This document shows, piece by piece, positions 13,626-62,795 of a DNA stretch of 64,000 nucleotides (the stretch's first letter is position 1; each line of letters starts with the position of its first letter). Source of the stretch: an uncultured Gammaproteobacteria bacterium (lineage in GTDB: Bacteria > Patescibacteriota > Patescibacteriia > 2-01-FULL-39-33); assembly GCA_964558935.1 (NCBI GenBank), contig CAZLFP010000001.1, positions 147,260 through 211,259 on the forward strand, written 5' to 3'. The notes beneath the pieces were generated by a model. The model did no database searches. It was not told the origin of the DNA and saw only the letters and a list, made by a program, of their open reading frames with translations. A program made the translations under genes and the position numbers.

Positions 13626-13642
13626 ATTAGTTTAAGGTCCCT

Positions 13643-17816: not shown

Positions 17817-17819
17817 TTT

Positions 17820-18980
17820 ATGAAAATTCTAGTTGTTTCACCGCTGTATGAAAAATATCATTGGGGAGGATTGGCACATTCTTGTAGAAGAATTTCTCTT
17901 GGCCTTAATAATAAGGGACATGAGGTAGTGGTTGTAAATATCGATGCCGAAAATCAATATTGGGATGAAGATAATAAACCCAATGGCTATTTCAAAACCG
18001 ATGATAATGGCTTAAGTTTATATCATGTGCCCCAGCATTATTCCTATACCAACATTGAGCTTAAAAAAGAAGATGACCTGGCAATAAAACTTCAACAATG
18101 GTATCTATTATTAAGATCAATTAGCAAAGATATAAAGCCAGACATAATAATATCTTTTTTTATTGCTCCCTATGGTTATCCACTCTCTCTCATTGCTAAA
18201 GAATTCGGTATTTCTATGATATCAGCAATTAGGGGTAATGACATTGGAAGATTTATGCATGATCCGATGATTATGCCACTTCTGAAGCATACTTTAGAAA
18301 ACTCAGATCTGGTTGTTTGTTTAGCAAAAGATTTGGAGACTCAGGTTAAGCTACTATATCCAAAAGCTAAAACCAAAGTTATTTACAATTCGATCGATCC
18401 GAAATTTTACAATCTAGAGTGGCCGGAAATATTTCAGAATGATATAGTTACCGTTGGTTCAGTTGGAATCTTTAAGCCTAAAAAGGGTGTTGAATTCTTT
18501 ATTGATGCTGTTAATAACAAAAAACGCGAAAAAATGAAGTTATTAATGGTTGGTGATTTTTATAAAACAAAAACAAAAAAGGAAGATATAATTAAAAATT
18601 CAATAAATGAAATCGAAGTGACAGGAGTTGTTACTCGAGAAAGGGTTATTAAATATTTGAAAGATATTGATATCTTCTTTACCCTTACTCACTCAGACGG
18701 GTGTCCAAATGCAACGCTAGAGGCAATGTGCGCCGGCAAATGTATTATTACAACCCCAGTAGCAGCTATGGCAGACTTACTGGAACATAAGCATAGCGCC
18801 TACTTTATAGAAAAAATGGATAAGGATTTAATAGTTAATGCAGTTGAAGAATTAATGTCAGATAGAGGCCTGGTAAAACAAATGGGGAGAAATGCTCGCA
18901 TAGCCGCCAGTAAGCTTTTACCCCCATATGAAATAGATGAGTGGGATATGGTCATAAAATCATTATCAAACAAAAAATGA
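17820..18980 (+). CDS. glycosyltransferase family 4 (GT-B fold)
   Basis: HSDGCPNATLEAMCAGKCIIT motif and GVEFFIDAV. Confidence 0.8.
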   Translation: MKILVVSPLYEKYHWGGLAHSCRRISLGLNNKGHEVVVVNIDAENQYWDEDNKPNGYFKTDDNGLSLYHVPQHYSYTNIELKKEDDLAIKLQQWYLLLRSISKDIKPDIIISFFIAPYGYPLSLIAKEFGISMISAIRGNDIGRFMHDPMIMPLLKHTLENSDLVVCLAKDLETQVKLLYPKAKTKVIYNSIDPKFYNLEWPEIFQNDIVTVGSVGIFKPKKGVEFFIDAVNNKKREKMKLLMVGDFYKTKTKKEDIIKNSINEIEVTGVVTRERVIKYLKDIDIFFTLTHSDGCPNATLEAMCAGKCIITTPVAAMADLLEHKHSAYFIEKMDKDLIVNAVEELMSDRGLVKQMGRNARIAASKLLPPYEIDEWDMVIKSLSNKK

Positions 18981-20116
18981 CTACAGTATTATATAGCCAT
19001 GATGGCAGGGGTATTGGTCATGTTAGTAGAACTGCAGCTTTAGCCATGGGAATTAAACGAATAAAACCTGACGAACAAGTTATTTGCATAACTGGTTATG
19101 AGGGATTTAATGACTTACACCCGAGAAATGACATAGAATGGATAAAGTTGCCGTCATATAAAACCACTGTTACCAAAGGAAAGGTTTGGGCTAAATTATC
19201 ACCCGCCGGATATACCAAAGAAGAATCTGCCAGTATTAGATCACAAATAATATTGGCATCGATTAAAGCGCTAAAACCGGATAATATAATTGTCGAATAT
19301 TTTCCACAGGGCAAAATGCTGGAAATAAGAAAGACCTTGCTTTACTTGGAAAGTAATACGAATTGTAATATATATCTTGGTTTGAGAGGTGTCATAGCCG
19401 ATAAAAATGATGATGGCTATGGCGACATCTTCAACCAAGATAATTATACAATTATTGATAAATACTACAAAAAAGTATTCTGTTATACTGATAGTAACGT
19501 ATTTACTTACAGGAAAGACGAATTCAATAATAATATTCTGAGCAAAATAGTTAATACTGGTTATGTTTCTAGAGCATCAGAAATCGACAAGATAACAGAC
19601 TTAGATAATAAGCCATCATATGATAAATTGGTGGGTTTAGGTTGCAGTGTTAATGCATTTGAAATGATTAAAATGATTATTAATGTTAAGTCAAAATCAT
19701 TTCCAGGTGAGAAGTGGGCCATTTTTTTAGGTACTGCCTTATCAAGAGCTGGAAAAGAAGAGCTTAGAGCCTATTCTAAGGATATTTACAACTTAGATCT
19801 TATCGATTTCAACGATGAATTTTTAGCATATCTAAAATCGGCTAAAGCTATCATTAGTCATGGCGGGTACAATACTATTACTGACACTCTTTTTTTTAGA
19901 AAGCCAACTATATATATAGCAAGAGATGTACCAGAAAAAGATCAAGAGATTCATTTAGAATATTTGAAGACGGCGGGAATAATATCGAATTATTTAACGG
20001 AGACAAATTTAACAGAAGACTTGTTGGAAAATGAAATTAGAAATATGAGCAAGAGAGAAGTATCAACTAACATAGACGGTTCAAGTAATGTGGCGAAAGC
20101 AATTTTTAACTTATAA
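18977..20116 (+). CDS. GT-B glycosyltransferase, MurG/GT28-like (start probably the internal Met overlapping the upstream stop)
   Basis: N-terminal G-rich loop HDGRGIGHVSRTAALA and C-terminal ISHGGYNTITDT resemble MurG/GT28 and UDP-glycosyltransferase donor-binding motifs. Confidence 0.6.
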   Translation: MTTVLYSHDGRGIGHVSRTAALAMGIKRIKPDEQVICITGYEGFNDLHPRNDIEWIKLPSYKTTVTKGKVWAKLSPAGYTKEESASIRSQIILASIKALKPDNIIVEYFPQGKMLEIRKTLLYLESNTNCNIYLGLRGVIADKNDDGYGDIFNQDNYTIIDKYYKKVFCYTDSNVFTYRKDEFNNNILSKIVNTGYVSRASEIDKITDLDNKPSYDKLVGLGCSVNAFEMIKMIINVKSKSFPGEKWAIFLGTALSRAGKEELRAYSKDIYNLDLIDFNDEFLAYLKSAKAIISHGGYNTITDTLFFRKPTIYIARDVPEKDQEIHLEYLKTAGIISNYLTETNLTEDLLENEIRNMSKREVSTNIDGSSNVAKAIFNL

Positions 20117-42613: not shown

Positions 42614-43621
42614 TTAATCTAAATATTTGGCAATATTGGCTTGATGTTCTTCATAAGTTCGACCGTAGATCAGATCACCCTCATCGTTGCTGATAAAATA
42701 ATAATAATTGTTTTGAGTTGGATAAACCGCAGCTAAAATAGCCACTTCACCCGGATTGGAAATGGGTCCGGGTGTTAAACCAGCATATTTGTAGGTATTA
42801 TACGGCGAATCCACTTCTAGATCAGCATAGGAGGGTCTCAGCTCACTCTTGCCGGTCACATAATTTACCGTCGCATCTGACTGCAGAGGAATGCCTTCAG
42901 CAATTCTCTTCTTGAAAATATCCGCAATCATGCGCTTGTCATCGTCTTTTAACGCTTCTCTTTCCACAATCGAAGCTAAAACAATGGTGTCGTAGATGGT
43001 ACTACCCTGGTTCGCAATCTCCTGTTTAACCTCCGGAGTCAATTTTCTATCTAAGTTATCCAACATTTTACGAATAATCTCTTCCACGGTGGCATCTGTA
43101 TATATCCGGTAGGTGTCCGGAAACAAAAACCCTTCTATCGTATCCGCTGGAATATTTGCTAAAAAAGCATACTCCGCTGTCCACAGATCAGTTGCAATAG
43201 CCTTTAAAAACTCTTCCTGAGTGACCAGTCTTTGAGATTCCAAATATTCACCTATCTGCTTGGCTGTCCAGCCTTCAATTACCGTAATCTGCTTCTCATT
43301 GTCGATCGCTTTACCAGTTATTAAAGTATCCGCAATTTCTTTTAAGCTCATGTCAGGACTTAATTTATACTCTCCGGCTAGCAACTTGGATTGAGCCCCC
43401 TGGTACCAGACATACCACTTAAATAAATTAGCAGAAGTGATTAACTGCTGTTGGTGCAAATTTTTAGCTATGGTTTTGACAGACGAACCTGTCTCCACTT
43501 CAAAATAGATTAAAGTAGGCTGGTCGCTAACTGAAGAATTTACACCGCTAAAAAAATAAACGGCTAGCACGACACTCACCACCGCCAAAACCGTGATTAT
43601 TAACCTAATTTTTCTCAACAT
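42614..43621 (-). CDS. mltG: endolytic murein transglycosylase MltG (YceG family)
   Basis: N-terminal TM anchor and YceG motifs (EGFLFPDTYRI, VASIVEREA). Confidence 0.85.
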   Translation of the reverse strand: MLRKIRLIITVLAVVSVVLAVYFFSGVNSSVSDQPTLIYFEVETGSSVKTIAKNLHQQQLITSANLFKWYVWYQGAQSKLLAGEYKLSPDMSLKEIADTLITGKAIDNEKQITVIEGWTAKQIGEYLESQRLVTQEEFLKAIATDLWTAEYAFLANIPADTIEGFLFPDTYRIYTDATVEEIIRKMLDNLDRKLTPEVKQEIANQGSTIYDTIVLASIVEREALKDDDKRMIADIFKKRIAEGIPLQSDATVNYVTGKSELRPSYADLEVDSPYNTYKYAGLTPGPISNPGEVAILAAVYPTQNNYYYFISNDEGDLIYGRTYEEHQANIAKYLD

Positions 43622-43704: not shown

Positions 43705-44475
43705 ATGCTTGAACCGATTAGAAAATATATTTTACTATCGGCGGTTTTTTTGGTAGTGCTGAAAGTTTTTTTAAACTTAGCAATTTTGGCATACCCGAAA
43801 ATAGACCGTTACCAGGCCTTAGATGTCAATTCTCAAGAATTAATCTCTTTAACCAATAATTACCGACAATCTCTGGGTTTAAACAGTTTAAAAGTCAATC
43901 CCAGATTAACTCAGGCGGCAGTCAATAAAGCTCAAGATATTTTAGAAGGCCAATATTTTAACCATACTTCACCGGCCGGTAAAAAGTTCTCAGATTGGAT
44001 CAAAGAAGTCAATTACGATTATTTCTATGTCGGTGAAAATCTAGCGATTGATTTTAGTGACAACCAAGAACTGTTTCAAGCCTGGTTAGACAGTCCCACT
44101 CATCGAGAGAATATCATTAGACCCCAATACCAAGAAATCGGTTTGGCCGCCCTCAGCGGTAAATATAAAAACCACTCAACTATTGTAGTGGTTCAATTAT
44201 TTGGCACACGAGTTCTGTCTCAGCCGACAGAAGAGGTCGCTACCAGCCTGCCTTTCAATGATTGGGCCAGTCATTATTTCTACGAACAGACCGGCTGGCA
44301 AAAATACCTTAAACTGGATACCTTGAATGTTATTAACAATCTAACAGATTACCTACTGATTATCTTCTCAGGTATTTACATTGTCAGTTACAATCCACGC
44401 AAAAAGAAAAACCAAATTAATATTAAACAACCTATTGTTAATCGATACCAAACAAAAATATTCAGGGAATGGTGA
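43705..44475 (+). CDS. CAP/SCP/PR1-like domain secreted protein
   Basis: Signal/TM segment followed by a CAP-domain motif pair (YFNHTSPAG ... GENLA ... WLDSPTHRENI). Confidence 0.7.
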   Translation: MLEPIRKYILLSAVFLVVLKVFLNLAILAYPKIDRYQALDVNSQELISLTNNYRQSLGLNSLKVNPRLTQAAVNKAQDILEGQYFNHTSPAGKKFSDWIKEVNYDYFYVGENLAIDFSDNQELFQAWLDSPTHRENIIRPQYQEIGLAALSGKYKNHSTIVVVQLFGTRVLSQPTEEVATSLPFNDWASHYFYEQTGWQKYLKLDTLNVINNLTDYLLIIFSGIYIVSYNPRKKKNQINIKQPIVNRYQTKIFREW

Positions 44476-45215
44476 GTCAAGTAGTTTAGCAAAAACTTAA
44501 TGGACAAGTAGCCGCTGACCAGAGCTGAGACAAAACCCAGTGCCAACAGCCACAAGTCTGCTTGACTGGTCCAATTAATTTCAAGGACTTGCTTAACTCC
44601 GGCTGCCAAAACAATTGGAATGGATAACAAAAAAGAAAAGCGAGCCGCTTGTTGACGTTTTAATTTTTGACCCATACCTGCTATAATGGTCATACCGGAG
44701 CGAGAAGTGCCCGGAATGAGAGCAACAGCTTGAGCTAAGCCGATAATCAGACTGTCATACAAATTCAATTGACTGATTTCACGCCTGGATTCAGCATATT
44801 TTTCAGTCAGCCACATAGCTATGGCAATGATGATCAGCATCACACCGACCAACCAAGTTTGATGAAAGTAAGTGGTGATAAGATCTTCAAAAAAATAACC
44901 GAGAATAGCCGCTGGAACAGTACCTATAATAATTAACCAGGCTAATCTTTGTTCATGATCCTGTTTTAAATTCCATTTAACCAAGCTAGTAAAAAAAGCT
45001 TGAGCCAATTTGACAATATCCGAATAAAAAAACAGCACCAGAGCGCCTAATGTTCCGAGGTGCAACACCACGTCAAACAGCAGATTATTCTGGAGTTGAA
45101 AATTAAAAATCTCGTGGAAAATGACTAAATGACCTGAACTCGAAATCGGCAGAAACTCAGTTAAACCCTGAACCAAACCGGCCAGGATGGCTAAAAAATA
45201 ATTCATAGTTAGCAA
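44388..45215 (-). CDS. uppP: undecaprenyl-diphosphatase (UppP/BacA)
   Basis: LTEFLPISSSGHL and GTSRSG motifs; 8 TM segments. Confidence 0.9.
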   Translation of the reverse strand: MLTMNYFLAILAGLVQGLTEFLPISSSGHLVIFHEIFNFQLQNNLLFDVVLHLGTLGALVLFFYSDIVKLAQAFFTSLVKWNLKQDHEQRLAWLIIIGTVPAAILGYFFEDLITTYFHQTWLVGVMLIIIAIAMWLTEKYAESRREISQLNLYDSLIIGLAQAVALIPGTSRSGMTIIAGMGQKLKRQQAARFSFLLSIPIVLAAGVKQVLEINWTSQADLWLLALGFVSALVSGYLSIKFLLNYLTHHSLNIFVWYRLTIGCLILIWFFFLRGL

Positions 45216-45219
45216 CTCT

Positions 45220-45669
45220 ATGTTGGAATTAATAATTATCCCTATCTTAGTTGGCTTGATTACTCAAGCCGTTAAGCTTATAATTGATGGTATACCAAAT
45301 AATTTAGATTGGCAACATGTGGTTGGAGATTATGGCGGTATGCCCTCATCACACACCGCTTTTGTTGCCTCCTTGGTTACAGTCATTGGCTTGTCCCAAG
45401 GATTAAACAGTCCGAGTTTTGCCATTGCTCTGGTCTTACTGGCGGTCGTAGCCAGAGACGCCTTGGGCTTTCGGACTGAAATCGGCAAAAATGCGGCTTT
45501 TACCAATCTCATTGCCAAGCAAGTTTTCAAGCATAAAAAAGTAAGTCTGTTGAACGAAAAAATGGGCCACCATCTGTCTGAAGTAATAGTTGGCTTCTTG
45601 ACTGGTGTCATCCTATCTGGTATACTCTATCCAGCCTATCTTTGGCTGACCTCGGCTTACATCACCTAG
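45220..45669 (+). CDS. divergent PAP2 (DUF212) membrane phosphatase-like protein
   Basis: GGMPSSHTAF motif characteristic of the DUF212 / acid phosphatase-like family; sits next to uppP. Confidence 0.7.
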   Translation: MLELIIIPILVGLITQAVKLIIDGIPNNLDWQHVVGDYGGMPSSHTAFVASLVTVIGLSQGLNSPSFAIALVLLAVVARDALGFRTEIGKNAAFTNLIAKQVFKHKKVSLLNEKMGHHLSEVIVGFLTGVILSGILYPAYLWLTSAYIT

Positions 45670-50695: not shown

Positions 50696-51679
50696 TTAAA
50701 AACCAAAGTACTCTATCTCTTCCCAAAGTTGCAAATTAAACTTGGATCTGACTTTTTGCTTAATAATGCTAATTAGCATAATAACGTCCTGAGCAGTGGC
50801 TTGACCCAGGTTAATAATCATGCCGGCATGTTGAGGAGAGACTTGAGCTCCTCCCACTTGCTTACCTTTTAAACCAGACTCCTCAATTAACCAAGCAGCG
50901 GGTATTTTCCGGTACTTAACATACTCAACTGGCAGTTTAATGCCCTTATCTGCCAAATCTTGCTCAATCTCGGTTGTGAGTATAATATTCTGGAAAGTGC
51001 TGCCAGCCGATGGATGTTTCATAAACTTCTGAGATCTAATTTTTACCAGGTCCAACATTTCACGCCGAATTTCAGCTTCCTGCCCAGGCTCTAATTTCAG
51101 CTTAACTGCTAAAATAATCTCCTGGTTGTCCGGTTGTTTAAATCGGCTCGTTCGGTAACCAAACTGACAATAATCCTTATCCACGGTTTTAATCTGACCA
51201 TTAGACAGCAAACTAACTTCCAGAATATTATCTGCCATTTCCTGACGGTAGGCTCCGGCATTATTATGCACAGCTCCTCCCAGTGTGCCCGGAATACCCA
51301 TAGCCCAGGCCAAGCCAGACAAGGAATGTTTGGCGGCGAGTAAAACGGCTTGCGACAAAGCAGCACCGGCTTCGGCGGTTAAGATGTTATTTTTGACTTC
51401 CAATTGCTGGTTATCTAGTTTAATAACCAAACCGGGATAACCTTGGTCACTGATTAGAAGATTACTGCCTCCGCCTAAGACAAAGTATGGCAATTGCTTG
51501 TCTTTGGCCAGTTGGATTAAAGCTGACAGGTTTTCTTGAGTAACTGCACAAAAATACTGAGCCGGTCCCCCGATTTTAAAAGTTGTGTATTTAGCCAAAG
51601 GTTCGTTAACTTTAACCCTTGCCAGTTTTTTTAATTGATCCAACATGTAGTTTTGGTTTAGTCTTTTTGTGTTGCGCAT
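50696..51679 (-). CDS. murB: UDP-N-acetylenolpyruvoylglucosamine reductase (MurB)
   Basis: FAD-binding TTFKIGGPAQYF, GGGSNLL and C-terminal substrate domain motifs. Confidence 0.9.
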   Translation of the reverse strand: MRNTKRLNQNYMLDQLKKLARVKVNEPLAKYTTFKIGGPAQYFCAVTQENLSALIQLAKDKQLPYFVLGGGSNLLISDQGYPGLVIKLDNQQLEVKNNILTAEAGAALSQAVLLAAKHSLSGLAWAMGIPGTLGGAVHNNAGAYRQEMADNILEVSLLSNGQIKTVDKDYCQFGYRTSRFKQPDNQEIILAVKLKLEPGQEAEIRREMLDLVKIRSQKFMKHPSAGSTFQNIILTTEIEQDLADKGIKLPVEYVKYRKIPAAWLIEESGLKGKQVGGAQVSPQHAGMIINLGQATAQDVIMLISIIKQKVRSKFNLQLWEEIEYFGF

Positions 51680-52465: not shown

Positions 52466-53845
52466 TCACTCGCGATGTGGCTCTTTTTTATTGACTAACT
52501 CTTTGGCCAGAGTGTAAATATTCCCGGCTCCCAAAAGAACAACCGCATCATAGCTCGAAACCAATTCCGGAAGAGCTGCTTTGGTCTGTTCTAAATCGCC
52601 CACATACTTCAACTGTGCGGCTTGAGCCAGCTTTTTTGCACTGACAGCATAATCTTCAGGCTTTTCTCGGCCGGCAACATAGAAAACATCTGTCAGCATC
52701 ACATGTTTTAAACCTTGTAACTCGGCTACAAACTGATTGAATAATTGTTTTGTCCGGTTGAGTTGGTGAGGTTGGAAAATGAACAAAATCTTTTTTTGAG
52801 GATAAAAGTCGGTCATAGCCTGAACAGTCTGTCTGACTGCCGCCGGTGTGTGAGCATAATCCGTTAATATCTCTTTACCTTGATATAATCCCAATCTTTC
52901 CAGCCTCCGCCATACTCCGTCAAAGTCAGACAGAGCAGTTTGAATAGTTTTAAAATCAATCTTTAAAGTCAAAGCGACAGCGGCGGCTGCCAAGGAATTA
53001 TATATATTATATCTGGCCGGCACTTTCAAATTAACCCGGCCTAAAGACTGGCCCAGATAATGCAGATCATAGCTTTGCTGCTGCTGATCCAATCTGACAT
53101 TTACAGCCTGCACGTCGGCAGGATGCTCAAGGCCGTAAGTTACCAGCTGAGCTTGTAAATCTTTCACTACTTCGCAACTGTTAGCATCATCTGCATTAAC
53201 CACTACATAGCCAGTTGGAGGGACTTGTGACAAATACTGTCGGAATGTCTGTTTGATATCAGCCAGATCAGTATAACAATCCAAATGGTCCTCTCGAATG
53301 TTAGTTATAACCGCCACTTGAGGCGAATAATTTAAAAAAGCACGCTGGTATTCATCACTTTCAAAAATAAAATAATCGCTCTGACCCACTCTGGCATTGC
53401 TCTGCAAGTATTTGACTTTGGCACCAATTAAAATATTGGGGTCTTGCTCAGCTTTTATAAAAATCAAACCGGTCATGGCAGTGGTGGTGGTTTTACCATC
53501 TGTTCCGGAAATGCCAATGCCATATTTAGCTTGAGTCAACAAACCAAGCAACTGAGGATATGTTATGGTGGGAATGCCCAACTGCCTAGCTTGTTGCCTT
53601 TCAGGATTAGATTCCGGTACAGCTACGGAATACACCATCAAATCTATACCAGCCACAATATTATCTTTCATTTGAGGTATTTTAACTTCAATACCCTCGT
53701 GTTCTAAGTCCTGAGTTATTTCCGACTCTGTCATATCACTGCCTAAAACCGTCTTACCCATCTGTCTTAAAATTCGAGCCGCAGCAGATATACCAATACC
53801 TCCAATGCCACAAAAATAAATTGTGCGTATTTTATGTAAATCCAT
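52466..53845 (-). CDS. murC: UDP-N-acetylmuramate--L-alanine ligase (MurC)
   Basis: Rossmann N-terminus IYFCGIGGIGISAAA and Mur ligase P-loop GISGTDGKTTTT. Confidence 0.9.
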   Translation of the reverse strand: MDLHKIRTIYFCGIGGIGISAAARILRQMGKTVLGSDMTESEITQDLEHEGIEVKIPQMKDNIVAGIDLMVYSVAVPESNPERQQARQLGIPTITYPQLLGLLTQAKYGIGISGTDGKTTTTAMTGLIFIKAEQDPNILIGAKVKYLQSNARVGQSDYFIFESDEYQRAFLNYSPQVAVITNIREDHLDCYTDLADIKQTFRQYLSQVPPTGYVVVNADDANSCEVVKDLQAQLVTYGLEHPADVQAVNVRLDQQQQSYDLHYLGQSLGRVNLKVPARYNIYNSLAAAAVALTLKIDFKTIQTALSDFDGVWRRLERLGLYQGKEILTDYAHTPAAVRQTVQAMTDFYPQKKILFIFQPHQLNRTKQLFNQFVAELQGLKHVMLTDVFYVAGREKPEDYAVSAKKLAQAAQLKYVGDLEQTKAALPELVSSYDAVVLLGAGNIYTLAKELVNKKEPHRE

Positions 53846-54907
53846 TTATTTTCTAATTAAACTCATAGCTTCTTGTGCCACTAACTCCGCTCCATTATTC
53901 TGCATTACCTTACCGATATTCCTAGCCAGATCTTCTTTTTGGGCTTGACTATACATTAATTCCTTAACCGAACTGGTAAATATCTGGTGAGTCAAGCTGG
54001 TCTGCGCTAACACCTCAACAGCATTGTTTTTTTGGTAATACTGAGCATTTTCTTCCTGCTGGTTGTCTGGAATGGGAATCAGAATGGTTGGCTTGGTCAG
54101 GACAGATAATTCAGATAATGTTCCAAGACCGGCTCGAGACACCACTACATCCGCCGCACACATCGCTTCAGTTAAACCGTGATGAATGAATTCATGTTGC
54201 TGGTAATGCTCTGCTTTGACATCTATTCGTTTACCCTTACCTGTAATATGGATAACTTGACAGAATTGAAGTAGTTCCGCCAAAGATTGTTGCACAACCT
54301 GGTTAATCTTGGCTGAACCAGTGCCTCCGCCCATGACCAACAGGACCGGTAAATTAGGTTTTAAGTTAAACAGCTGGCGACCCCGATTAGCATCACAAAC
54401 ATAAAATTCAGATCTCACCGGATTGCCGGTTAGAACCACCTTGCTGGCTGGAAACATTTTTAAAGATGGCTCAAAAGAAACGGTTATTTTTTTTGCTAAA
54501 CCGGCCACCAATCTGTTGGCCAGTCCCGTCTTAATATCCTGCTGGTGGACTAAAATGGGAATTTTAAGCAACCAGGCAGCATACGCAACCGGTACACCCA
54601 CATAACCTCCGGCTAAGATTACCACCTGCGGCTTAAACTTAAACAAGATTCTTAAAGATTGAAAGAAACCGATTTTAATCCGAAAAGGATCCACAAAATT
54701 CTGGATCGACCAATACCTTCTCAGCTTGCCGGAACAAATGGCTTGAAATGGAATTTTGTAACTTTCAACCGCTGCCTTTTCCGGTCCGGTTTTAGTTCCC
54801 ACAAACAAACATTCGGCCTCAGGCTGATGTTCTTTAATTTTTTCCCAAACTGCGATTAAGGGCGTTACCGGTCCCATGGTACCGCCACCGGCCAAAAGTA
54901 TTTTCAT
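53846..54907 (-). CDS. murG: undecaprenyldiphospho-muramoylpentapeptide beta-N-acetylglucosaminyltransferase (MurG)
   Basis: MKILLAGGGTMGPVTP G-loop and a GT28 C-terminal domain. Confidence 0.9.
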   Translation of the reverse strand: MKILLAGGGTMGPVTPLIAVWEKIKEHQPEAECLFVGTKTGPEKAAVESYKIPFQAICSGKLRRYWSIQNFVDPFRIKIGFFQSLRILFKFKPQVVILAGGYVGVPVAYAAWLLKIPILVHQQDIKTGLANRLVAGLAKKITVSFEPSLKMFPASKVVLTGNPVRSEFYVCDANRGRQLFNLKPNLPVLLVMGGGTGSAKINQVVQQSLAELLQFCQVIHITGKGKRIDVKAEHYQQHEFIHHGLTEAMCAADVVVSRAGLGTLSELSVLTKPTILIPIPDNQQEENAQYYQKNNAVEVLAQTSLTHQIFTSSVKELMYSQAQKEDLARNIGKVMQNNGAELVAQEAMSLIRK

Positions 54908-54917
54908 AGTTAAATAA

Positions 54918-56081
54918 TTAATCTCTAGCTTGTTTAGATATATTAACTAAAATTCCGGAAGCTGCCAAGCACATCATGAGTGAAGTACCGCCGTAGGAAA
55001 TAAATGGCAAAGGCACGCCGGTTAAAGGCAGAATACCGATAATCGCTCCGATGTTTAAAAAAGCTTGAACCACAAACCAAGTGACAATGCCAATCGCTAG
55101 TAATCTGCCGAACGGATCACTGATATGATTGGCCATTTTAAAAACTCGCAGAGCCAGCATGACAAAAGCAATTACTACAGCCACACACATAAAAAAACCC
55201 AGTTCCTCACCCACCACAGCAAAAATGGAATCTCCGGCCACTTCCGGCAAATAGGCAAACTTCTGACGACTGTGCCCATATCCCCTGCCTAAAATACCTC
55301 CGGAACCTACCGCCAACAAAGCCTGGTTAATGTGGTAACCAATACCCTGAGGATCCAACTCCGGATGCAAGAAAGTTGTTAAACGAGCCGCCCGATACGG
55401 GGAGGTTTTAATCAGTAACCATAAACCACCCAAACCCGCAATCGACAACCAAGTCAAATGAAGCAAAGAACCGCCAGCCACAAAAAAAACAATCAACGAA
55501 GTAATGACAATAATACTCATGGTACCAAAGTCTGGCTGTAGAATTATTAAAACCATAATTATTAGAAGTACAAAAACAAAAGGTAAAAAACCGGCTTTCA
55601 AATCCTTTAATTTTTTTTCGCCTCTGGCAGACAGCCAAGCTACTAAGTAAATTAAGAAAGTGATCTTAACAATCTCTGAAGGCTGGAGAGAAAAACCAAA
55701 AAAGTTAATCCACGAATGAGCTGTTCCATACTCTGCTCCAATACCGGGTATGAAAACTAAAACGAGTAAAACAATGGTAGCAATTAAAAAAGGAGCAGCC
55801 AATTCCTTGAGTCGGTAATAGTCTAATCTAGAAAACAAGACAAAAAGAACAAAGCCCGGAATTAAACCAAAGATAATCTGATGCTTAACATGAAAATAAC
55901 TGTCTCCAAAGTTCTTAAAACCAGAAGCCACACCGGCTGAAGACAGCATAATTAAGCCAAATAAGACTAAAAAACCGATCAGACCAATTAGGTACCAATC
56001 CGGCTGTTTATCCTTTTGTCCGCGAATAATATCTCGGAAAAATTCCTTGATTTGAAACTTATCCAGTATTTTCTTTACCAC
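54918..56081 (-). CDS. ftsW: SEDS-family peptidoglycan glycosyltransferase FtsW/RodA
   Basis: 10 TM helices and SEDS signature regions; located between murD/murG. Confidence 0.9.
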   Translation of the reverse strand: MVKKILDKFQIKEFFRDIIRGQKDKQPDWYLIGLIGFLVLFGLIMLSSAGVASGFKNFGDSYFHVKHQIIFGLIPGFVLFVLFSRLDYYRLKELAAPFLIATIVLLVLVFIPGIGAEYGTAHSWINFFGFSLQPSEIVKITFLIYLVAWLSARGEKKLKDLKAGFLPFVFVLLIIMVLIILQPDFGTMSIIVITSLIVFFVAGGSLLHLTWLSIAGLGGLWLLIKTSPYRAARLTTFLHPELDPQGIGYHINQALLAVGSGGILGRGYGHSRQKFAYLPEVAGDSIFAVVGEELGFFMCVAVVIAFVMLALRVFKMANHISDPFGRLLAIGIVTWFVVQAFLNIGAIIGILPLTGVPLPFISYGGTSLMMCLAASGILVNISKQARD

Positions 56082-56141
56082 AAAATTTAGCTTATTTTAG
56101 CTATTATTATATATAATACCATATTTATTAAACTTTGGCTA

Positions 56142-56170
56142 TTGACAAATATTCAATAGTATGCTATACT
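56142..56170 (+). promoter_or_regulatory. sigma70 promoter (TTGACA-17-TATACT) driving the GC-rich ncRNA
   Basis: Read directly; predicted TSS about 56177. Confidence 0.6.
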
Positions 56171-56177
56171 TGCAATT

Positions 56178-56773
56178 ATGTTCATCGGTAAAGGAGACCG
56201 GTGGCAAAACCAGGTGAAGTCTGGTTCCTTAATAACCAAAGGACGCCGGACACAATGCCCAATGGGCAAGGAGTATTACTCCATGGCGCATGAACGAGCA
56301 GGTCCGATGACAGCACGGATTAATACCAGCTCGACCACCGTGGGCGACGGCTCCGTCTAGCACGGGGCCTGGATCACAAAGAAATCGAAAGGGACAGGAC
56401 CATGGTTAAGCTCCAAATCTGGGGGCATCGGACTACAAGATTGGCGCATCAAGACATGTAAGATGCATTGACGGATGTTAGCCAATTGAGGGAAACCGGT
56501 GTCCCTGATTCCACCCACCGAAAAAATATGTTCTCTAGGAGGTTTGGCTGGGGGGTCATGACAATCCGCGAAGCTTGAGCCTGTGAGGCAACGCTCGATC
56601 GCGACGAGCAAATGACGCCTGAAAAGCAGAGCCAGGCAGCGGGACAAAACGGCACGCCGACGACCGGCAAACGATTACAGCCGGGGGCGATACAGCCGCT
56701 TCCCTCGCCATTCCTCTAAAATGGGGCATCTTCTAAGCGACGAAACGCCAGAAGCTCTGCCCCTTTCTTTTTT
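56178..56773 (+). ncRNA. rnpB: structured GC-rich RNA, most likely RNase P RNA (rnpB, type A-like, with insertions); the 3-prime end includes an intrinsic terminator at 56723-56773
   Basis: No credible ORF; GC far above flanking DNA; own promoter and double terminator. Segments resemble M1 RNA in the same order: GAAAGGACGCCGGAC...AAUGGGCAAGG (P4 5-prime/J4-5), GGAUCA...GAAAGGG (J11/12-P12), GGUUAAGCUCCA (compare GGUAAACUCCA), GCUUGAGCCUGUGAGG (compare P15 GCUUGAGCCAGUGAGCG) and GACGACCGGCAAACG (compare ACAGAACCCGGCUUAUCG, the P4 3-prime strand). Confidence 0.5.
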
Positions 56774-56798
56774 ACCGAATTAATCTCGGTATTTTTTT
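56774..56798 (+). terminator. second intrinsic terminator after the ncRNA
   Basis: accga-attaatc-tcggt followed by ATTTTTTTAT. Confidence 0.6.
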
Positions 56799-56907
56799 AT
56801 TGCCAAAAAACATACGATCCTCTAATATATAAAACACTGTGGCTGTTGACTTAGACTAGTATTCCGAGAGGTTAGTCCAAGATAGTCTAGCAGTCACAGT
56901 ATTTTTT

Positions 56908-58275
56908 TTACACAGTATATTTCTGACCATATTCCGGAATCACTCCTTCAATGCCTAATTTCTGTTTTAAACCATCCTTAATCATCAAAGCCGGTTCTTC
57001 TTCACCGTGCACCACAAAAACCTGTTTAGGTTTAGGACGAGTCATCATCTTAACCCAATGCAATAATTTGGGCTGGTCAGCGTGAGCAGAATAGGCTCCA
57101 ATGGCATCGATCTTAGCTTTGACTCTCACCTGTTCTCCCAAAATCTTAACCTGTTTGGCTCCGTCAAACAACTTTCTGCCCAAAGAACCATCCACTTGGT
57201 AGCCAATGAAAAGTAATTGATTATTAGGATCATTTAAGTACAACTTCAAATGAAAAGGAATTCGACCTCCCACGCACATACCAGAACCGGCAATAATTAC
57301 CTTGGGTGGCTGTATGCCATTAATTCTTTTAGATTGGCGACTGCTACTGGTAAACTCAAGGCCTGGAAATTGGAAAATATCATCTCCGGCTTGCATTAAT
57401 TTTTGAGATTCTTTATCAAAATAATGTAAATAATCTTGGTAAATTTTAGTCGCCCTAATGGCTAAAGGTGAATCTAAAAAAACCCTGGTATCTGGCACCA
57501 ACCGATTTTCAATTAAATAGTTTAATTCATACAATACTTCTTGAGTTCTTTCCAAAGCAAAAGAAGGGATCATTAAAACTCCTTTCTGGCCTACAGATTG
57601 AATAATCGCTTCTTTTAACATCCTAAGCCTTAATTCAGCTGGCTCATGTATTCTACCGCCATAGGTCGCTTCCATAACCACATAATCTGCACCGTCAATC
57701 ACGCTGGTATCTTTTAACAAAGGAACCGGCGAATTGCCCAAATCACCTGAAAAAACTAATTTCTTCTCTTGGGAGCCATCCTTAATCCAAACTTCAGCTA
57801 TCGCCGAACCTAAGATATGCCCGGCATCTCGTAATTTGAATCTTAGTTTGGAATTAATTTTAATCTGCCGATCATATTTCAAAGGTACAAAGAGATTGAT
57901 CAAATCTCTGACATTTTGACGGGAATAAGGAGCGGGTCGATTCTGACTCTTGGCTTCTTTTTGGGCAATACGCGCTGAATCATACAGCATTAGATATGCA
58001 AAATCTTTAGTTGGCTCAACACAATACACCTTGCCTCTGAAGCCATCTTTATATAACTTGGGCAACCGACCGGCATGATCCATATGAGCATGAGTCAGTA
58101 TGACAAAATCTATTTCCTTGGGATCAAAAGCAAACTCATCCCAATTTCTACTGGCATAAAAATCTCCACCTTGGAAAATCCCACAATCTACCAAAAACTT
58201 AACCGAATCTGTTTCCACTAAGTGGCAAGAGCCAGTCACTTCTTGGCAAGCACCATGAAATGATAATTTAATCAT
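56908..58275 (-). CDS. MBL-fold beta-CASP ribonuclease (RNase J-like), short form
   Basis: HAHMDHAG metallo-beta-lactamase motif, MIKLSFHGACQEVTGSC N-terminus and a beta-CASP region; 455 aa. Confidence 0.7.
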   Translation of the reverse strand: MIKLSFHGACQEVTGSCHLVETDSVKFLVDCGIFQGGDFYASRNWDEFAFDPKEIDFVILTHAHMDHAGRLPKLYKDGFRGKVYCVEPTKDFAYLMLYDSARIAQKEAKSQNRPAPYSRQNVRDLINLFVPLKYDRQIKINSKLRFKLRDAGHILGSAIAEVWIKDGSQEKKLVFSGDLGNSPVPLLKDTSVIDGADYVVMEATYGGRIHEPAELRLRMLKEAIIQSVGQKGVLMIPSFALERTQEVLYELNYLIENRLVPDTRVFLDSPLAIRATKIYQDYLHYFDKESQKLMQAGDDIFQFPGLEFTSSSRQSKRINGIQPPKVIIAGSGMCVGGRIPFHLKLYLNDPNNQLLFIGYQVDGSLGRKLFDGAKQVKILGEQVRVKAKIDAIGAYSAHADQPKLLHWVKMMTRPKPKQVFVVHGEEEPALMIKDGLKQKLGIEGVIPEYGQKYTV

Positions 58276-59654
58276 ATTAACTTTTTAAATTGATTACCCC
58301 GATCAAATTCGTTGATAAATAATCCAAAGGAAGCAAAACCGGGACTGAGTAAAATAATGTCTCCTTTTTTGGCCATTGATTTGGCAATGCCAACAGCTTG
58401 AACCATCGACCGGACAACGGTAATCGGCAACTTATCTATCTTCTTGACTCTTGACAATAATTTATCTGTGCCCGTACCTTCAAACAAAACCAGAGACTTC
58501 ACATGCTGCTTTATCAAAGGAATGACCAAATCATATTTAAGCCCCTTGTCTGAACCACCGGCCAGTAAAACAATGTTTCTTTTCCGACCCAATGATTTTA
58601 AAGCCACGCTTAAAGCCTCGGGTGTAGTGGAAGTTGTATCATTGTAGTACTTAACACCCTGATCTGTTTTAACCAATTCCAGTCTGTCAGCGATACCGGT
58701 AAAACTTTTCACACCTCTAACAATATTTTTAACAGCTATGCCGTAAATCATAGCAACACATACAGCGGCCAGAGTGTTATACACATTATGCTCACCAGGA
58801 ATTTGAATATCCTTCAAACTAACCACTCTTTGCTCCTGACCATCTTGTCTGAAACAGATATACCCCCTTTTGACAAAGCAGCCGTTTTGTTCTGCAAACT
58901 CGTCCAGACTAAACCAGTATCTTTGAGCCAAAGCTTGAGAGGCAATTTTGTTAGTATACTTGTTATCCTTATTGATAACCAGATAATCTTGCGGGTTTTG
59001 CCATTTAAAAATATGGCTCTTAGCCTGAACATAATCTGTCATATCGGCATAAGTATTTAAATGATCCGGATACACATTGGTAAAAACAGCAATATGAGGA
59101 CTTAATTGGTACGGCTCCAAGCTTTCTGTCAGCCAAGAGGATAATTCCAACACAACGGGACCGCCTTTGTTGATCTGAGACAATTGAGCTAGAGGTGAAC
59201 AGGTAATATTACCACCCAATACACTGTTGGGATATTGGGTTGAAATAAGTTTATGGATTAAACTGGTGGTCGTACTCTTACCTCTGGTACCGGTAATGCC
59301 AATCAGTCTTTTTCTATCCACCAATTTAAAAAAAATGGAAATATCTGTTTCAATGGGAATTTGATGCTTTCTGGCCAGATTTAATAATTGAGATCTGTTG
59401 GGTACCAAAGGATTTCTGACAATTAAATCGGCATTTAAAACATCTTGACTGCGGTGTTCTCCCAGTACATATTTAATCTGACTCTCATATCTCTTTAACC
59501 TCTTAATCTGGTCTTTGAGTTGTGCATGGGTTTTTAAATCCGTAATCGTTAACTTGGCACCTTGTTTAAGCAAATACTTGGCCGCTGAGATACCGCTACC
59601 TTGAGGAAAAACACCCAACCCAATTAGAGTTACTTTTTTGTTTTGGTAATTCAT
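58272..59654 (-). CDS. murD: UDP-N-acetylmuramoylalanine--D-glutamate ligase (MurD)
   Basis: KKVTLIGLGVFPQGSG Rossmann N-terminus and P-loop GITGTRGKSTTT. Confidence 0.9.
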   Translation of the reverse strand: MNYQNKKVTLIGLGVFPQGSGISAAKYLLKQGAKLTITDLKTHAQLKDQIKRLKRYESQIKYVLGEHRSQDVLNADLIVRNPLVPNRSQLLNLARKHQIPIETDISIFFKLVDRKRLIGITGTRGKSTTTSLIHKLISTQYPNSVLGGNITCSPLAQLSQINKGGPVVLELSSWLTESLEPYQLSPHIAVFTNVYPDHLNTYADMTDYVQAKSHIFKWQNPQDYLVINKDNKYTNKIASQALAQRYWFSLDEFAEQNGCFVKRGYICFRQDGQEQRVVSLKDIQIPGEHNVYNTLAAVCVAMIYGIAVKNIVRGVKSFTGIADRLELVKTDQGVKYYNDTTSTTPEALSVALKSLGRKRNIVLLAGGSDKGLKYDLVIPLIKQHVKSLVLFEGTGTDKLLSRVKKIDKLPITVVRSMVQAVGIAKSMAKKGDIILLSPGFASFGLFINEFDRGNQFKKLI

Positions 59655-60319
59655 AGTGATCTAACCACAGCCATGGGTGTTTGCTCACTGCCCTGGCCTA
59701 ATGGATTATCTTTAAAAATGGCTTTGGCCAGCTCAGAATCCACTCCTTGACTGACACCCAGCACATTAACACCTAAATCGTTTGCGTCAATTATTATTAC
59801 TTGAATATTATACTCATCTGCCAACTTCTGAGCTACTTTGTCTGGCTCTTTTGGACCCAAAACCGCATACTCATTGTAGGGAGGCAGAGTGTAATCACAA
59901 GGACCGTCAATGGCATTGACGCCATGACCGGCCAGGATATAGAAAACACCCTTTTGACCGAATAATTTGGCAATACCCCCAATTAAAGCAGCGACTACAA
60001 TTCTTAAACCTCCGGCTTCATTAATCGCCAGTTGCATCGTTTCCGGCCGACCCAAGCCAATACCATAGGGTGACTTGTAGACAAATTTAACCAACAACCT
60101 TGCTAACCATCCAACCTTAACCTCAGAAATCTTGTAGGCTCTGCCCTGGGTAATCGCCACACATCTCTCTGAAATAAACAGAATATCTCCTGTTTGCAAA
60201 ACCGGTTTGGCATATTGCGCTACCACCTGAAAGATGTCATCTGCCGGCATAATAACATGCGTCTTAATATGCCATCTCTGGTAAGTCTTGTTTTCAACTG
60301 TTATTTGCGTTTGTGTCAT
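59651..60319 (-). CDS. CofE-like protein (F420-0:gamma-glutamyl ligase family amide ligase), function here unknown
   Basis: GDILFISERCVAITQGRAY and AGHGVNAIDGP / IIIDANDLGVN resemble CofE family motifs (GD[IV]LV[IV]SSK..., NAG[IV]D); overlaps the murD start. Confidence 0.45.
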   Translation of the reverse strand: MTQTQITVENKTYQRWHIKTHVIMPADDIFQVVAQYAKPVLQTGDILFISERCVAITQGRAYKISEVKVGWLARLLVKFVYKSPYGIGLGRPETMQLAINEAGGLRIVVAALIGGIAKLFGQKGVFYILAGHGVNAIDGPCDYTLPPYNEYAVLGPKEPDKVAQKLADEYNIQVIIIDANDLGVNVLGVSQGVDSELAKAIFKDNPLGQGSEQTPMAVVRSL

Positions 60320-60320
60320 A

Positions 60321-61718
60321 CTATCTGTGCACAGTAATTATATCTCCCAATTTGATCCAGTCAAAGAACTTGGCCGCCGGCATATCATCCAATCTGACAC
60401 AACCATGACTGACAGCCGTACCTAAAGAACCGGGTCCTTCTTTAATTCCATTTATATACGGTAAAGCATGAATGCCGTTTTGCACACTGCCGGCGTTGTA
60501 AAAACCTACGAATTTCGGCATACCCCAAGTTTGACCATCCCCGGCTCCATACGCCATTTCATGTTTTGACAACACTTGGAATTCTCCCAAGCGAGTCGGA
60601 GTGGACCTTTTACCGGTCGAAGTTATGTATTCCTCAACTTTGTAACCTAAATCATACCAACCAAATCTTTGTTTGGTGACATCAATATCTACGTACCGAC
60701 CGTAACGCATATCTCCTGTCTGCGTATTTTGCACGACAGTCACTAAATCTGCCTGGCCATCTCCATTTAGTTCACCCAGTGCAATGTTCAAACCGCGACT
60801 ATCCTGAGCCTTACCCACAAAAGACTCTTCCAGCAGACTGCCGTCCGCTTTAAAAATCTTCACATGAGGACCGCCGGTAAAACCGGCCGCAGTTATGATT
60901 TCCTGGCCGGGTTGATTGTCATAATCGTAAGCGGCCACTGACACTCCGCCTCTGAAGTTTTCTTCATAAGCCAAAAATTCGGTAATTAAAGAGCCATCTG
61001 CCCGATAAATACCAACATAGGGCTGAGACCCATATTGGCCTGAAATAACAATTTCTTGTTTACCATCTCCCCCCAAATCTATACTTGCCAAATTAATTCC
61101 TTTCAGACTTCCGTAGTTGTTGACCTCAAACATGCCATAGTAACTGGCATCCGGATTAAAAATTTTAACCACTGGTTCATACCCATAACTGGAAGCCACT
61201 AAAATCTTGTTGCCATCTCCGTTAAGATTAGCACAAGCCACTGACACTCCCCACCTGTACTCGGTTTTGTCAAAGGCAAAGAAACCATCATTAACGGTCG
61301 GATGACCGTAAGAATCAAAAACACGAATATGCGGACCACCGGTTTCTCCGGCTCCGGTAATGATTTCCGCTTGACCATCTCCATTTAAATCACAAGCGGC
61401 CACAGACACACCTCCCCTGAAATTATCCTTGTAAGCCAAGAAGGCATCCAAAAAAGAACCATCGGCTCTAAATATTTTAACAACCGGTGACTGTTCCTTA
61501 AGAGCACCCAAAATAATTTCAGTTTTTCCATCACTGCCCAAATCCGCGACTGCCAAATTATAGCCTAAACCGTCGTTTTCTTCAAAACCACCCAGTCTGT
61601 TTAAAGATTTTAGAGCATAAAAATTTACCGGCACACCAGCCCAAACCAAGCTGCCCAACAGGCAACCCAGCACAACTAAACCACCCACGGCTAGTTTGTA
61701 ATTAATGTTAGACTTCAC
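60321..61718 (-). CDS. secreted/membrane-anchored FG-GAP (VCBS-like) repeat beta-propeller fused to a C-terminal YkuD L,D-transpeptidase domain
   Basis: Six DxDGDG-type repeats (DLGSDGKTEI, DLNGDGQAEI, NLNGDGNKI, DLGGDGKQEI, LNGDGQADL) with interspersed GGPHI/VK motifs; C-terminal GSLGTAVSHGCVRL is the YkuD catalytic motif. Confidence 0.75.
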   Translation of the reverse strand: MKSNINYKLAVGGLVVLGCLLGSLVWAGVPVNFYALKSLNRLGGFEENDGLGYNLAVADLGSDGKTEIILGALKEQSPVVKIFRADGSFLDAFLAYKDNFRGGVSVAACDLNGDGQAEIITGAGETGGPHIRVFDSYGHPTVNDGFFAFDKTEYRWGVSVACANLNGDGNKILVASSYGYEPVVKIFNPDASYYGMFEVNNYGSLKGINLASIDLGGDGKQEIVISGQYGSQPYVGIYRADGSLITEFLAYEENFRGGVSVAAYDYDNQPGQEIITAAGFTGGPHVKIFKADGSLLEESFVGKAQDSRGLNIALGELNGDGQADLVTVVQNTQTGDMRYGRYVDIDVTKQRFGWYDLGYKVEEYITSTGKRSTPTRLGEFQVLSKHEMAYGAGDGQTWGMPKFVGFYNAGSVQNGIHALPYINGIKEGPGSLGTAVSHGCVRLDDMPAAKFFDWIKLGDIITVHR

Positions 61719-61736: not shown

Positions 61737-62795
61737 TTAAATATTCCAAGCGCCCCTGTCCATTAAAAAAATAACCAAGCCAATAATCGCCATCATGGCT
61801 CCAATCACCCAAAAACGCATTACAACTTTCGCTTCGGGCCAACCAATGGCTTCAAAATGATGATGAATGGGGGTGGATAAAAAAACTTTTTTACCATGTC
61901 TTAATTTTTTGGAAGTCACCTGAATAATAACCGAAGCAGATTCAAGTACAAACAAAAAACCAATGATCGGCAAAAGCAACACAGAATTGGTTAAGAGTGC
62001 AATAATGGCTAAAGTTACTCCCAAAGACATGGCTCCGGTATCCCCCATAAAAAACCGAGCCGGTGTAATGTTAAACCATAAAAAAGCGAGCAATGAGCCA
62101 ATAATCACTCCGCAGAAAGCCGCCAAATCATATTTACCCTGGACAAAAGCGATACTGCCAAAAGATAAAAAGGCAAAAAGCAGAGTACCACCGGACAAAC
62201 CATCTAAACCATCTATTTCATTAACAGAAAAAGCTGTCGCTACGACCACAAAAATCACAAACGGAATAAACCACAACCCCACATTGTAGGTGGCTAAAAA
62301 AGGAATCCGGATAAAATCCCATTCCAATTTAAAATAAAACCACCAGGCCGCTACGATTGCAATGACTGTGTACACAAACAGGCGATGTCCCATAGACAAA
62401 CCGCCGCCATACGGTCCGATCTTTCTGACATTCAAATAATCATCCACCAAACCAACCAGAGCCGCCGCCACCAAAGCTCCCAAGGGTAACCAAGTTTGCG
62501 ATCGAGACAAAAAATTCAATTTGGAAAACTCCCCGTTGAAGAATTGAGATAAATAAAAGAAAGCCAAAGCAATGACCAATGTGGTTATCCAGATCAATAA
62601 ACCGCCCATAACAGGTGTGCCAGACTTTTTCTGATGCAATTGACTCATAATTGGAGCCCTGTCTGAACTTCGAATCTGCTTACCCAATTTAAACTTATAC
62701 AAAAAATGAGTTAACACAGGAGTCCAACCAATAGCCATGACAAAGGACAATAAGGTTAAAAAAAAGATTTTAATCACAAAGAAGTCAATATCCAT
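61737..62795 (-). CDS. mraY: phospho-N-acetylmuramoyl-pentapeptide transferase (MraY)
   Basis: NEIDGLDGLSGG, NITPARFFMGDTGAMSLG and HHHFE motifs; 10 TM helices. Confidence 0.9.
   Translation of the reverse strand: MDIDFFVIKIFFLTLLSFVMAIGWTPVLTHFLYKFKLGKQIRSSDRAPIMSQLHQKKSGTPVMGGLLIWITTLVIALAFFYLSQFFNGEFSKLNFLSRSQTWLPLGALVAAALVGLVDDYLNVRKIGPYGGGLSMGHRLFVYTVIAIVAAWWFYFKLEWDFIRIPFLATYNVGLWFIPFVIFVVVATAFSVNEIDGLDGLSGGTLLFAFLSFGSIAFVQGKYDLAAFCGVIIGSLLAFLWFNITPARFFMGDTGAMSLGVTLAIIALLTNSVLLLPIIGFLFVLESASVIIQVTSKKLRHGKKVFLSTPIHHHFEAIGWPEAKVVMRFWVIGAMMAIIGLVIFLMDRGAWNI

Follow-up and report, generated by a model that had tools for sequence, protein, structure and literature searches.

The window analysed here is a 64,000-nucleotide stretch of contig CAZLFP010000001.1 (assembly GCA_964558935.1; GTDB lineage Patescibacteriota), and it carries, between mraY and murD of the division and cell wall (dcw) cluster, a gene for a protein related to CofE, the F420-0:gamma-glutamyl ligase. 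We find that this CofE-like protein is a member of a large, strongly conserved sister family of F420:gamma-glutamyl ligase. It has the CofE fold, is homologous to CofE and has lost the determinants by which CofE binds F420; its gene is packed tightly into an operon with peptidoglycan genes, and this position is kept across its own clade. The reading that we favour, tentatively and at somewhat less than even confidence, is that the gene product is a soluble nucleoside triphosphate (NTP)- and metal-dependent amide ligase of the CofE superfamily that acts on an acceptor other than F420, possibly a precursor of the cell envelope.

A sister family of CofE

The Pfam profile PF01996 (F420_ligase) matches the protein with E = 1.9e-11 and 44.3 bits against a gathering cut-off of 25, residues 18-180 falling on positions 2-150 of the 218 in the profile. 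Neither the single protein nor a 25-sequence profile, used as query in sequence searches of the Protein Data Bank (PDB), reached any structure, CofE included. An AlphaFold (AF2) model was built from 25 homologues (pLDDT 84.8, pTM 0.81), and Foldseek searches of the PDB retrieved only Archaeoglobus fulgidus CofE (2PHN, 2G9I and 7ULD; E = 3e-8 to 6e-7, TM 0.56-0.62), the next match having E = 0.85. Identity in the structural alignment with A. fulgidus CofE, for which the sequence used was checked to be identical to that of 2G9I, is only 15-16%. Profiles were then compared by hhalign, 156 members of the CofE-like family against 31 CofE sequences, and aligned with 98.9% probability (E = 1e-16, 189 columns); an earlier comparison with a shallow profile had given 11% only and is superseded by the deeper one. 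This result identifies the protein as a true homologue of CofE and of FbiB's N-terminal domain, as the initial annotation had proposed when it assigned the CofE-family fold and named Pfam and HHpred as the check. The likeness includes an N-terminal GD-x-hydrophobic-S...GR motif and a C-terminal xxTPxxxxR strand. The equivalog models tell the two families apart: the protein scores 21.7 against a cut-off of 180.65 for TIGR01916, 17 against 274 for NF009809 and 16.9 bits against 350 for the FolC2-type model TIGR04132, and these matches are confined to its first 50-60 residues (the first 50 for TIGR04132). Judged from these scores, it is not a CofE orthologue.

The family is large. In a set of 5.8 billion proteins, 6020 relatives of the window protein were found at E <= 0.001, and in a library clustered at 50% identity 995 clusters matched, of which 187 reach E <= 1e-30. 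On the Patescibacteria side, the members with a name belong to Uhr-, Kaiser-, Falkow-, Roizman- and Pacebacteria, Parcubacteria and Saccharibacteria; others are from WOR-3, Clostridia, Negativicutes, Coprothermobacterota and Actinobacteria, including the cultured Actinopolymorpha alba. Stand-alone members have about 220-290 residues, and fusions to AsnB-type modules also occur. Identity across phyla is about 57-62%, with 67 invariant positions in an alignment of 25 sequences, which places the family among the better-conserved proteins of reduced Patescibacteria genomes; the alignments indicate strong purifying selection. A search of plasmids found no copy of the family, and no PF01996 gene is listed in the Tn-seq (transposon sequencing) tables of the Saccharibacterium Southlakia epibionticum. 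Two unannotated GenBank records from human faeces, each titled 'UNVERIFIED: Bacteriophage sp.' (MT835656.1, our locus L099, and MT838774.1), also carry members. The first encodes dapB, a HAD hydrolase, a 919-residue AsnB-CofE-like fusion, RNase J and FtsK; with housekeeping genes such as these, the record probably represents an actinobacterial contig of high GC content and not a phage.

CofE holds F420 by a domain-swapped beta-hairpin, the G153-C155 segment, F92 and R234 of the partner subunit (PMC10861534). In the profile alignment, the hairpin (residues ~170-192 of CofE) is deleted from the CofE-like protein, G153 and R154 are replaced by D181 and L182, C155-F156 are deleted and F92 is aligned with Ala111. 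Moreover, the protein stops at a position corresponding to residue 221 of CofE and lacks the C-terminal tail bearing R234. All four F420-contacting elements of CofE are, on this alignment, deleted or replaced. A genuine cofactor gamma-glutamyl ligase, whether a CofE for F420 or a folate polyglutamylase like FolC2, would fit the name 'coenzyme F420-0:L-glutamate ligase' that source databases give to the relatives, the PF01996 membership and the weak N-terminal matches to TIGR01916 and TIGR04132, but the equivalog scores and the absence of the chromophore contacts make it very improbable. The hosts point the same way, being mostly Patescibacteria and WOR-3, neither of which is mentioned among the F420 producers (Actinobacteria, Chloroflexi, Proteobacteria and a few other phyla) given in PMC8498797. 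Since carriers are found in such unlisted phyla and in Actinobacteria alike, the family looks independent of F420 status. Actinobacteria make F420 with FbiB, and their copy of the CofE-like family would be an additional paralogue. A tblastn search over the whole window gave no second CofE, and no F420 biosynthesis gene was present among the ~32 that were scanned of the 55-60 larger open reading frames (ORFs) of the window, nor were cofC, cofD, cofG, cofH, fbiA, fbiC or fbiD among the precomputed Pfam calls available for fetched loci. The initial annotation had held F420 production to be unlikely, and the failed equivalog models, the missing contacts and the hosts agree with it. As this is a separate family without the F420-binding apparatus of CofE, the F420 ligase label, which thousands of public genes bear, many in organisms not known to make F420, is very probably wrong.

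To compare the active sites, residues were counted in the 156 family members at positions that are invariant in the 31 CofE sequences. Asp109 of CofE is kept as D138 in 155 of the 156 members, Asp150 as D178 in 148, Asn152 as N180 in 141 and Arg49 as R60 in 141. Nocek and colleagues are said to have reported in 2007 that D109, D150, T151 and E208 of CofE are Mn2+ ligands; together with E47 and K45 they make up six residues, all invariant in the 31 CofE sequences, which we take to be ligands of Mn2+ and GTP. The family keeps two of these six. Acidic residues are newly conserved beside the old site, at E51 (138/156), D181 (138/156) and D204 (140/156). The best-conserved motifs of the family, KSPYGIGLG, IDGP[CT]xYTLPPYN and DNPLGQxx[EQ]QTP, lie largely in insertions of its own that are absent from CofE. 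The window protein contains the full motif set (S-E-[KR]-x-V-A-I-x-Q-G-R, [KR]-[ST]-P-x-G-I-G-L-G, A-I-D-G-P-[CT], D-A-N-D-x-G and D-N-P-L-G-Q-x-x-[EQ]-Q-T-P), whose underlying positions are conserved in 59-99% of the 156 members. This pattern points to a catalytic core that has been kept, a metal site that has been rebuilt and a substrate pocket that is new, and not to a decayed CofE.

The residues that were lost weigh against ligase chemistry. Glu47 of CofE is Gln58 in 144 members and Glu208 is Gln209 in 141 (90-92%), Thr151 is Ala179 in 103 and Lys45 is Ile56 in 122, replacements by which the two-metal chemistry may have been altered or lost. They are what a pseudoenzyme or regulator of CofE fold would be expected to display, one able to bind a nucleotide or precursor and to modulate an AsnB-like module or wall enzymes, and frequent fusion to AsnB-like modules that themselves lack catalytic motifs (see below) would fit such a role as well. 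We consider it improbable, given that, of the four presumed metal ligands, two are retained, as are the equivalents of N152 and R49, that E51, D181 and D204 flank the old site, that Gln can ligate Mg2+, and that the density of conserved polar residues and the ~60% identity across phyla are more typical of an active site.

Genomic context and fusion partners

The CofE-like ORF, read directly in the window sequence, starts with ATG and encodes 222 residues; its translation includes the motifs TGDILFISERCVAITQGRAYK and VNAIDGPCDY, along with the GDILFISER...GR and NAIDGP motifs. Both of its junctions are tight. The TAG stop of the L,D-transpeptidase (LDT) gene (60323-60321) is separated by a single nucleotide from the CofE-like ATG, which begins at 60319, and the CofE-like TGA (59653-59651) overlaps the murD ATG (59654-59652) by 4 nt (CTATGA). 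From this spacing, the gene reads as translationally coupled to the L,D-transpeptidase gene and to murD, within the mraY-murD pair. Scans of the 54-64 kb region for promoters (28 found against 23.2 expected) and terminators (9 against 9.9) stayed at chance level and are uninformative about operon boundaries. The ORF, its motifs and its overlap with the start of murD stand as first annotated. Its direction needs correcting: the gene had been placed upstream of the L,D-transpeptidase gene and mraY, but all of these genes are on the - strand, so that it is transcriptionally downstream of both and upstream of murD.

The mraY and murD genes form one of the most constant gene pairs of bacteria, and this constancy makes a conserved insertion between them notable. 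For the context analysis 98 loci were fetched, neighbour clusters being counted over 89; a contig scan with the window protein as single query gave 5 loci. With the CofE-like gene written as X, one relative (L094, 65% identity) has the order mraY-X-murD-ftsW-murG-murC-murB, a second (L093, 70% identity) shares this order except that a small ORF follows X, and two others have mraY-LDT-X (L013, 72% identity) and mraY-X (L014, 65% identity). The location between mraY and murD that was originally proposed is conserved in the clade to which the window belongs, across five loci with 65-72% identity. The mraY-X-murD arrangement is confined to this clade.

Envelope or division genes recur beside X in more distant lineages. 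The order X-mraZ-mraW is found in one locus (L016), mraZ two genes downstream of X in another (L055), an ftsA-like gene after X in a third (L077) and an Amidase_3 gene with a peptidoglycan-binding domain in a fourth (L075). A class A penicillin-binding protein (PBP) gene is convergent with X in the L009 group, L079 and L095, and a PAP2 gene lies on the opposite strand, one or two genes upstream of X, in 6 loci. A Negativicutes metagenome-assembled genome (MAG; L005) has the order murI-hypothetical-X-rph-murJ-like, and a Clostridia MAG (L008) has MurQ/NagZ/MurR-like genes upstream of X and BlaI/BlaR1-like genes downstream. Two fusions of the CofE-like domain to Amidase_3 count on the same side. 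Envelope families account for 32 of the 292 genes within +-2 positions of X as compared with 13 of the 364 at >=4 positions (Fisher p = 3e-4), a p value that overstates the effect because seeds were in part chosen after their neighbours had been seen and the loci are related. In a Pfam control with 132 random far genes, PBP, PAP2, amidase, M23, FtsA and MraZ were all absent from the 25 most frequent families; it did list four Mur ligases, at least three of which are probably the window clade's own murC. At least one envelope gene lies within +-2 positions in 14 of 38 lineages (clusters at 75% identity). Counted as independent events, placements inside a dcw cluster or at its margin number ~3-4 of ~33, for which the binomial p is ~0.04-0.008 at a chance rate of 2.4% that is our own estimate. 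We read the association of the family with envelope genes as real but modest. An envelope precursor is favoured as the substrate because the gene is coupled to murD and the L,D-transpeptidase gene inside the mraY-murD pair and because envelope neighbours occur in other lineages.

Several features of the context count against that preference, as do the provenance of the two p values and the literature, in which our searches found no paper on the family and no biochemistry for any member. No neighbour is conserved family-wide, the largest neighbour cluster comprising 7 of 89 loci, and 24 of the 38 lineages have no envelope gene within +-2 positions; the 132 immediate neighbours are spread over 98 Pfam families. 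Genes of RNA processing recur too: RNase J neighbours X in the L041/42/50 lineage and in L099, a related beta-CASP nuclease is encoded in the window, and RNase PH, MiaB and rnpA are among the recurrent neighbours, with yidC also seen. Actinobacterial members adjoin lexA or fumarase. Further recurrent neighbours are GH130, Fe-ADH and HAD hydrolases. A strong peptidoglycan claim was dropped in view of the partly post hoc seeds and the recurrence of RNA-processing neighbours.

Fusions were surveyed in the best 150 representatives at 50% identity, 67 of which have >=300 residues. N-terminal to the CofE-like domain, GATase_7 was found in 25 of these long representatives and Asn_synthase in 22, and the best fusions, with 420 and 311 bits, exceed the cut-off of 267 set for the asparagine synthase equivalog TIGR01536. 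No other partner occurs in more than two representatives: Amidase_3 was seen twice, and there were single cases of PlsY, CDP-alcohol phosphatidyltransferase, GNAT, HD, M20, adenylate kinase and AhpC. The fused AsnB modules are often degenerate, the N-terminal Cys (Cys2) being kept in 5-7 of 37 long fusions and the SGGxDS PP-loop in 11 of 37. Where the Cys2 glutaminase nucleophile is lost, Ser or Thr often takes its place. Among these fusions (representatives P0148-P0267; L011, L012, L099), both features are kept in a minority from distant hosts (P0148, P0197, P0199, P0238 and L099), which includes intact fusions in a low-GC host (P0148) and in the high-GC gut contig (L099). An ammonia-channelling amidoligase had been entertained as an explanation of the fusions and was demoted, since most of the fused modules lack the Cys2 nucleophile and the PP-loop.

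These fusions are the main argument for an amide ligase or amidoligase with a housekeeping role that has no relation to peptidoglycan, which would share a pathway with AsnB-type glutamine amidotransferases, might make or amidate a small Asp- or Glu-derived metabolite with ammonia or glutaminase-released glutamate as co-substrate, and would owe its dcw position to a lineage-specific accident in a compact genome. AsnB-type modules (in about 25 of the 150 representatives) are the only partner in more than two, they are intact in very different hosts, one fusion gene stands directly upstream of gatCAB (L012), and the context is otherwise as highly variable as that of a stand-alone housekeeping gene. 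We regard this explanation as possible but doubtful. The degeneracy of most fused modules speaks against a general catalytic coupling, the loci of stand-alone members contain no AsnB gene, and the sole Asn_synthase-like ORF of the window has no glutaminase domain and is located in a separate island of low GC, and dcw-linked positions recur in several lineages. Moreover, the AsnB paralogues AsnB1 and LtsA amidate peptidoglycan in some Firmicutes and Actinobacteria, so that a fusion is compatible with a wall role and equally with an unrelated amide-forming pathway.

Proposed chemistry and relation to known amide ligases

CofE proceeds through an acyl-phosphate intermediate that is then attacked by an amine (PMC8498797). 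By analogy, the account with most support makes the CofE-like protein an NTP-dependent ligase, for which an envelope substrate is favoured. In such a reaction the retained Asp138, Asp178 and Asn180 would hold the nucleoside triphosphate (GTP in CofE) and a divalent metal, the carboxylate of the substrate would be activated to an acyl phosphate, and an amine, either an amino acid or ammonia, would attack it to give the amide bond. The substrate pocket would have been rebuilt, the conserved loops KSPYGIGLG, IDGPCxYTLPPYN and DNPLGQ taking the place of the F420 hairpin and the C-terminal tail. The likeliest substrate would be an envelope precursor, whether a UDP-MurNAc-peptide, some lipid-linked intermediate or a glycoconjugate related to them; a role in peptidoglycan synthesis, on the stem peptide or on a lipid-linked intermediate, is put forward as a hypothesis.

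The CofE fold can evidently change its acceptor, as the recruitment of FolC2, the CofE-like folylpolyglutamate synthase of Chlamydia, to a non-F420 substrate illustrates. The window protein differs from FolC2, its match to that model being restricted as described above. Amide bonds to carboxylates of the stem peptide are made by Mur ligases and MurT through acyl phosphates and by AsnB/LtsA through acyl adenylates, and the genes for MurT/GatD, AsnB/LtsA and the Mur ligases are found with or near mur genes. The CofE-like protein would resemble these enzymes by analogy of mechanism, and its gene resembles theirs in lying near mur genes; with AsnB/LtsA there is the further link that AsnB-type modules are its recurrent fusion partner. 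With the Mur ligases the CofE-like domain has no kinship of sequence or fold, and the MurD of the window is encoded by a separate gene. Extended to the whole family, the proposal would be that of an unrecognised, widespread amide ligase or amidoligase for envelope precursors, an analogue of MurT/GatD or AsnB/LtsA and maybe the older lineage from which CofE was recruited; we think this rather unlikely.

If the family does act on cell-wall precursors, peptidoglycan biosynthesis would gain an enzyme fold new to it, and bacteria that are difficult to culture a possible target; if it is partnered with AsnB-type amidotransferases, it would point to a pathway of amide formation not yet described. How CofE arose in evolution has been called unclear (PMC8498797), and a sister family bears on it. 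Carriers include cultivable or gut-derived Actinobacteria (A. alba and the human gut contig), which makes the family approachable by experiment.

Other features of the window

In order of transcription, all on the - strand, the genes of the cluster are mraY, the L,D-transpeptidase gene, the CofE-like gene, murD, a beta-CASP gene, an 826-nt gap, ftsW, murG, murC and, further on, murB (Table 1).

Table 1. The CofE-like gene and the genes around it in the window
Feature	Coordinates	Strand	Supporting match
murB	50696-51679	-	Pfam
murC	52466-53845	-	Pfam
murG	53846-54907	-	Pfam
ftsW	54918-56081	-	Pfam
beta-CASP metallo-beta-lactamase ribonuclease-like gene	56908-58275	-	PF10996, PF00753, PF07521
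murD (UDP-MurNAc-L-Ala:D-Glu ligase)	58272-59654	-	TIGR01087, 392 bits against cut-off 212
CofE-like gene	59651-60319	-	PF01996, 44.3 bits against cut-off 25; AF2 pLDDT 84.8; Foldseek CofE only; hhalign 98.9%
FG-GAP + YkuD L,D-transpeptidase fusion	60321-61718	-	PF01839, PF13517; PF03734 E = 3.4e-15
mraY, first clear peptidoglycan gene in the co-oriented run	61737-62795	-	TIGR00445, 222 bits against cut-off 192
YceG/MltG	42614-43621		
Secreted CAP-domain protein	43705-44475		
UppP/BacA	44388-45215		
DUF212 divergent PAP2	45220-45669		
ORF-free gap	56082-56907		
Low-GC island	12903-20116	+	

The start of the beta-CASP gene, which separates murD from ftsW, overlaps the murD stop by 4 nt (58272-58275). 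Its best NCBIfam matches are to the Cas14 MBL/CASP model, where its 431 bits fall short of the cut-off of 800, and to archaeal aCPSF1 (326 bits). The L,D-transpeptidase protein consists of an N-terminal run of FG-GAP repeats and a C-terminal YkuD domain, and its gene is also present in L013. The exact sequence of this fusion is absent from a collection of 15 billion proteins, for which a differing start-codon call is a possible reason. More envelope genes, for YceG/MltG and UppP/BacA, are found a few kilobases from the dcw cluster, and the divergent PAP2 and the secreted CAP-domain protein are also encoded nearby.

In the gap that separates the beta-CASP gene from ftsW, the core (56150-56800) has a GC content of 0.55, compared with ~0.40 for the window. 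On the + strand, antisense to the dcw genes, this core folds with -233 kcal/mol against -199 +/- 6 for shuffled sequences (z = -5.6), and on the - strand z is -1.2. It is flanked on the + strand by a near-consensus promoter-like TTGACA-17-TATACT (56142-56170) and by a hairpin with a T-run (56773-56791). A search of Rfam gave nothing significant for the gap, the sole match being raiA-hairpin at E = 0.09, and the gap has no similarity to any fetched locus. It is a candidate for a novel structured RNA of ~600 nt. In L093, a gap of ~830 nt between murD and ftsW (4365-5192) also contains no called gene and shows strong structure on either strand (z = -4.0 and -5.6); it has internal repeats of ~70-75 nt, seen by eye, and does not align with the window gap.

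The low-GC island has a GC content of ~0.30, compared with 0.38-0.42, and a reversed GC skew. It encodes a 240-residue protein without a Pfam match, a radical SAM/SPASM protein, the Asn_synthase-like protein without a glutaminase domain (15085-16677), two GT1 glycosyltransferases and a GT28-like one, and it looks like a horizontally acquired cluster for a glycan or a modified peptide.

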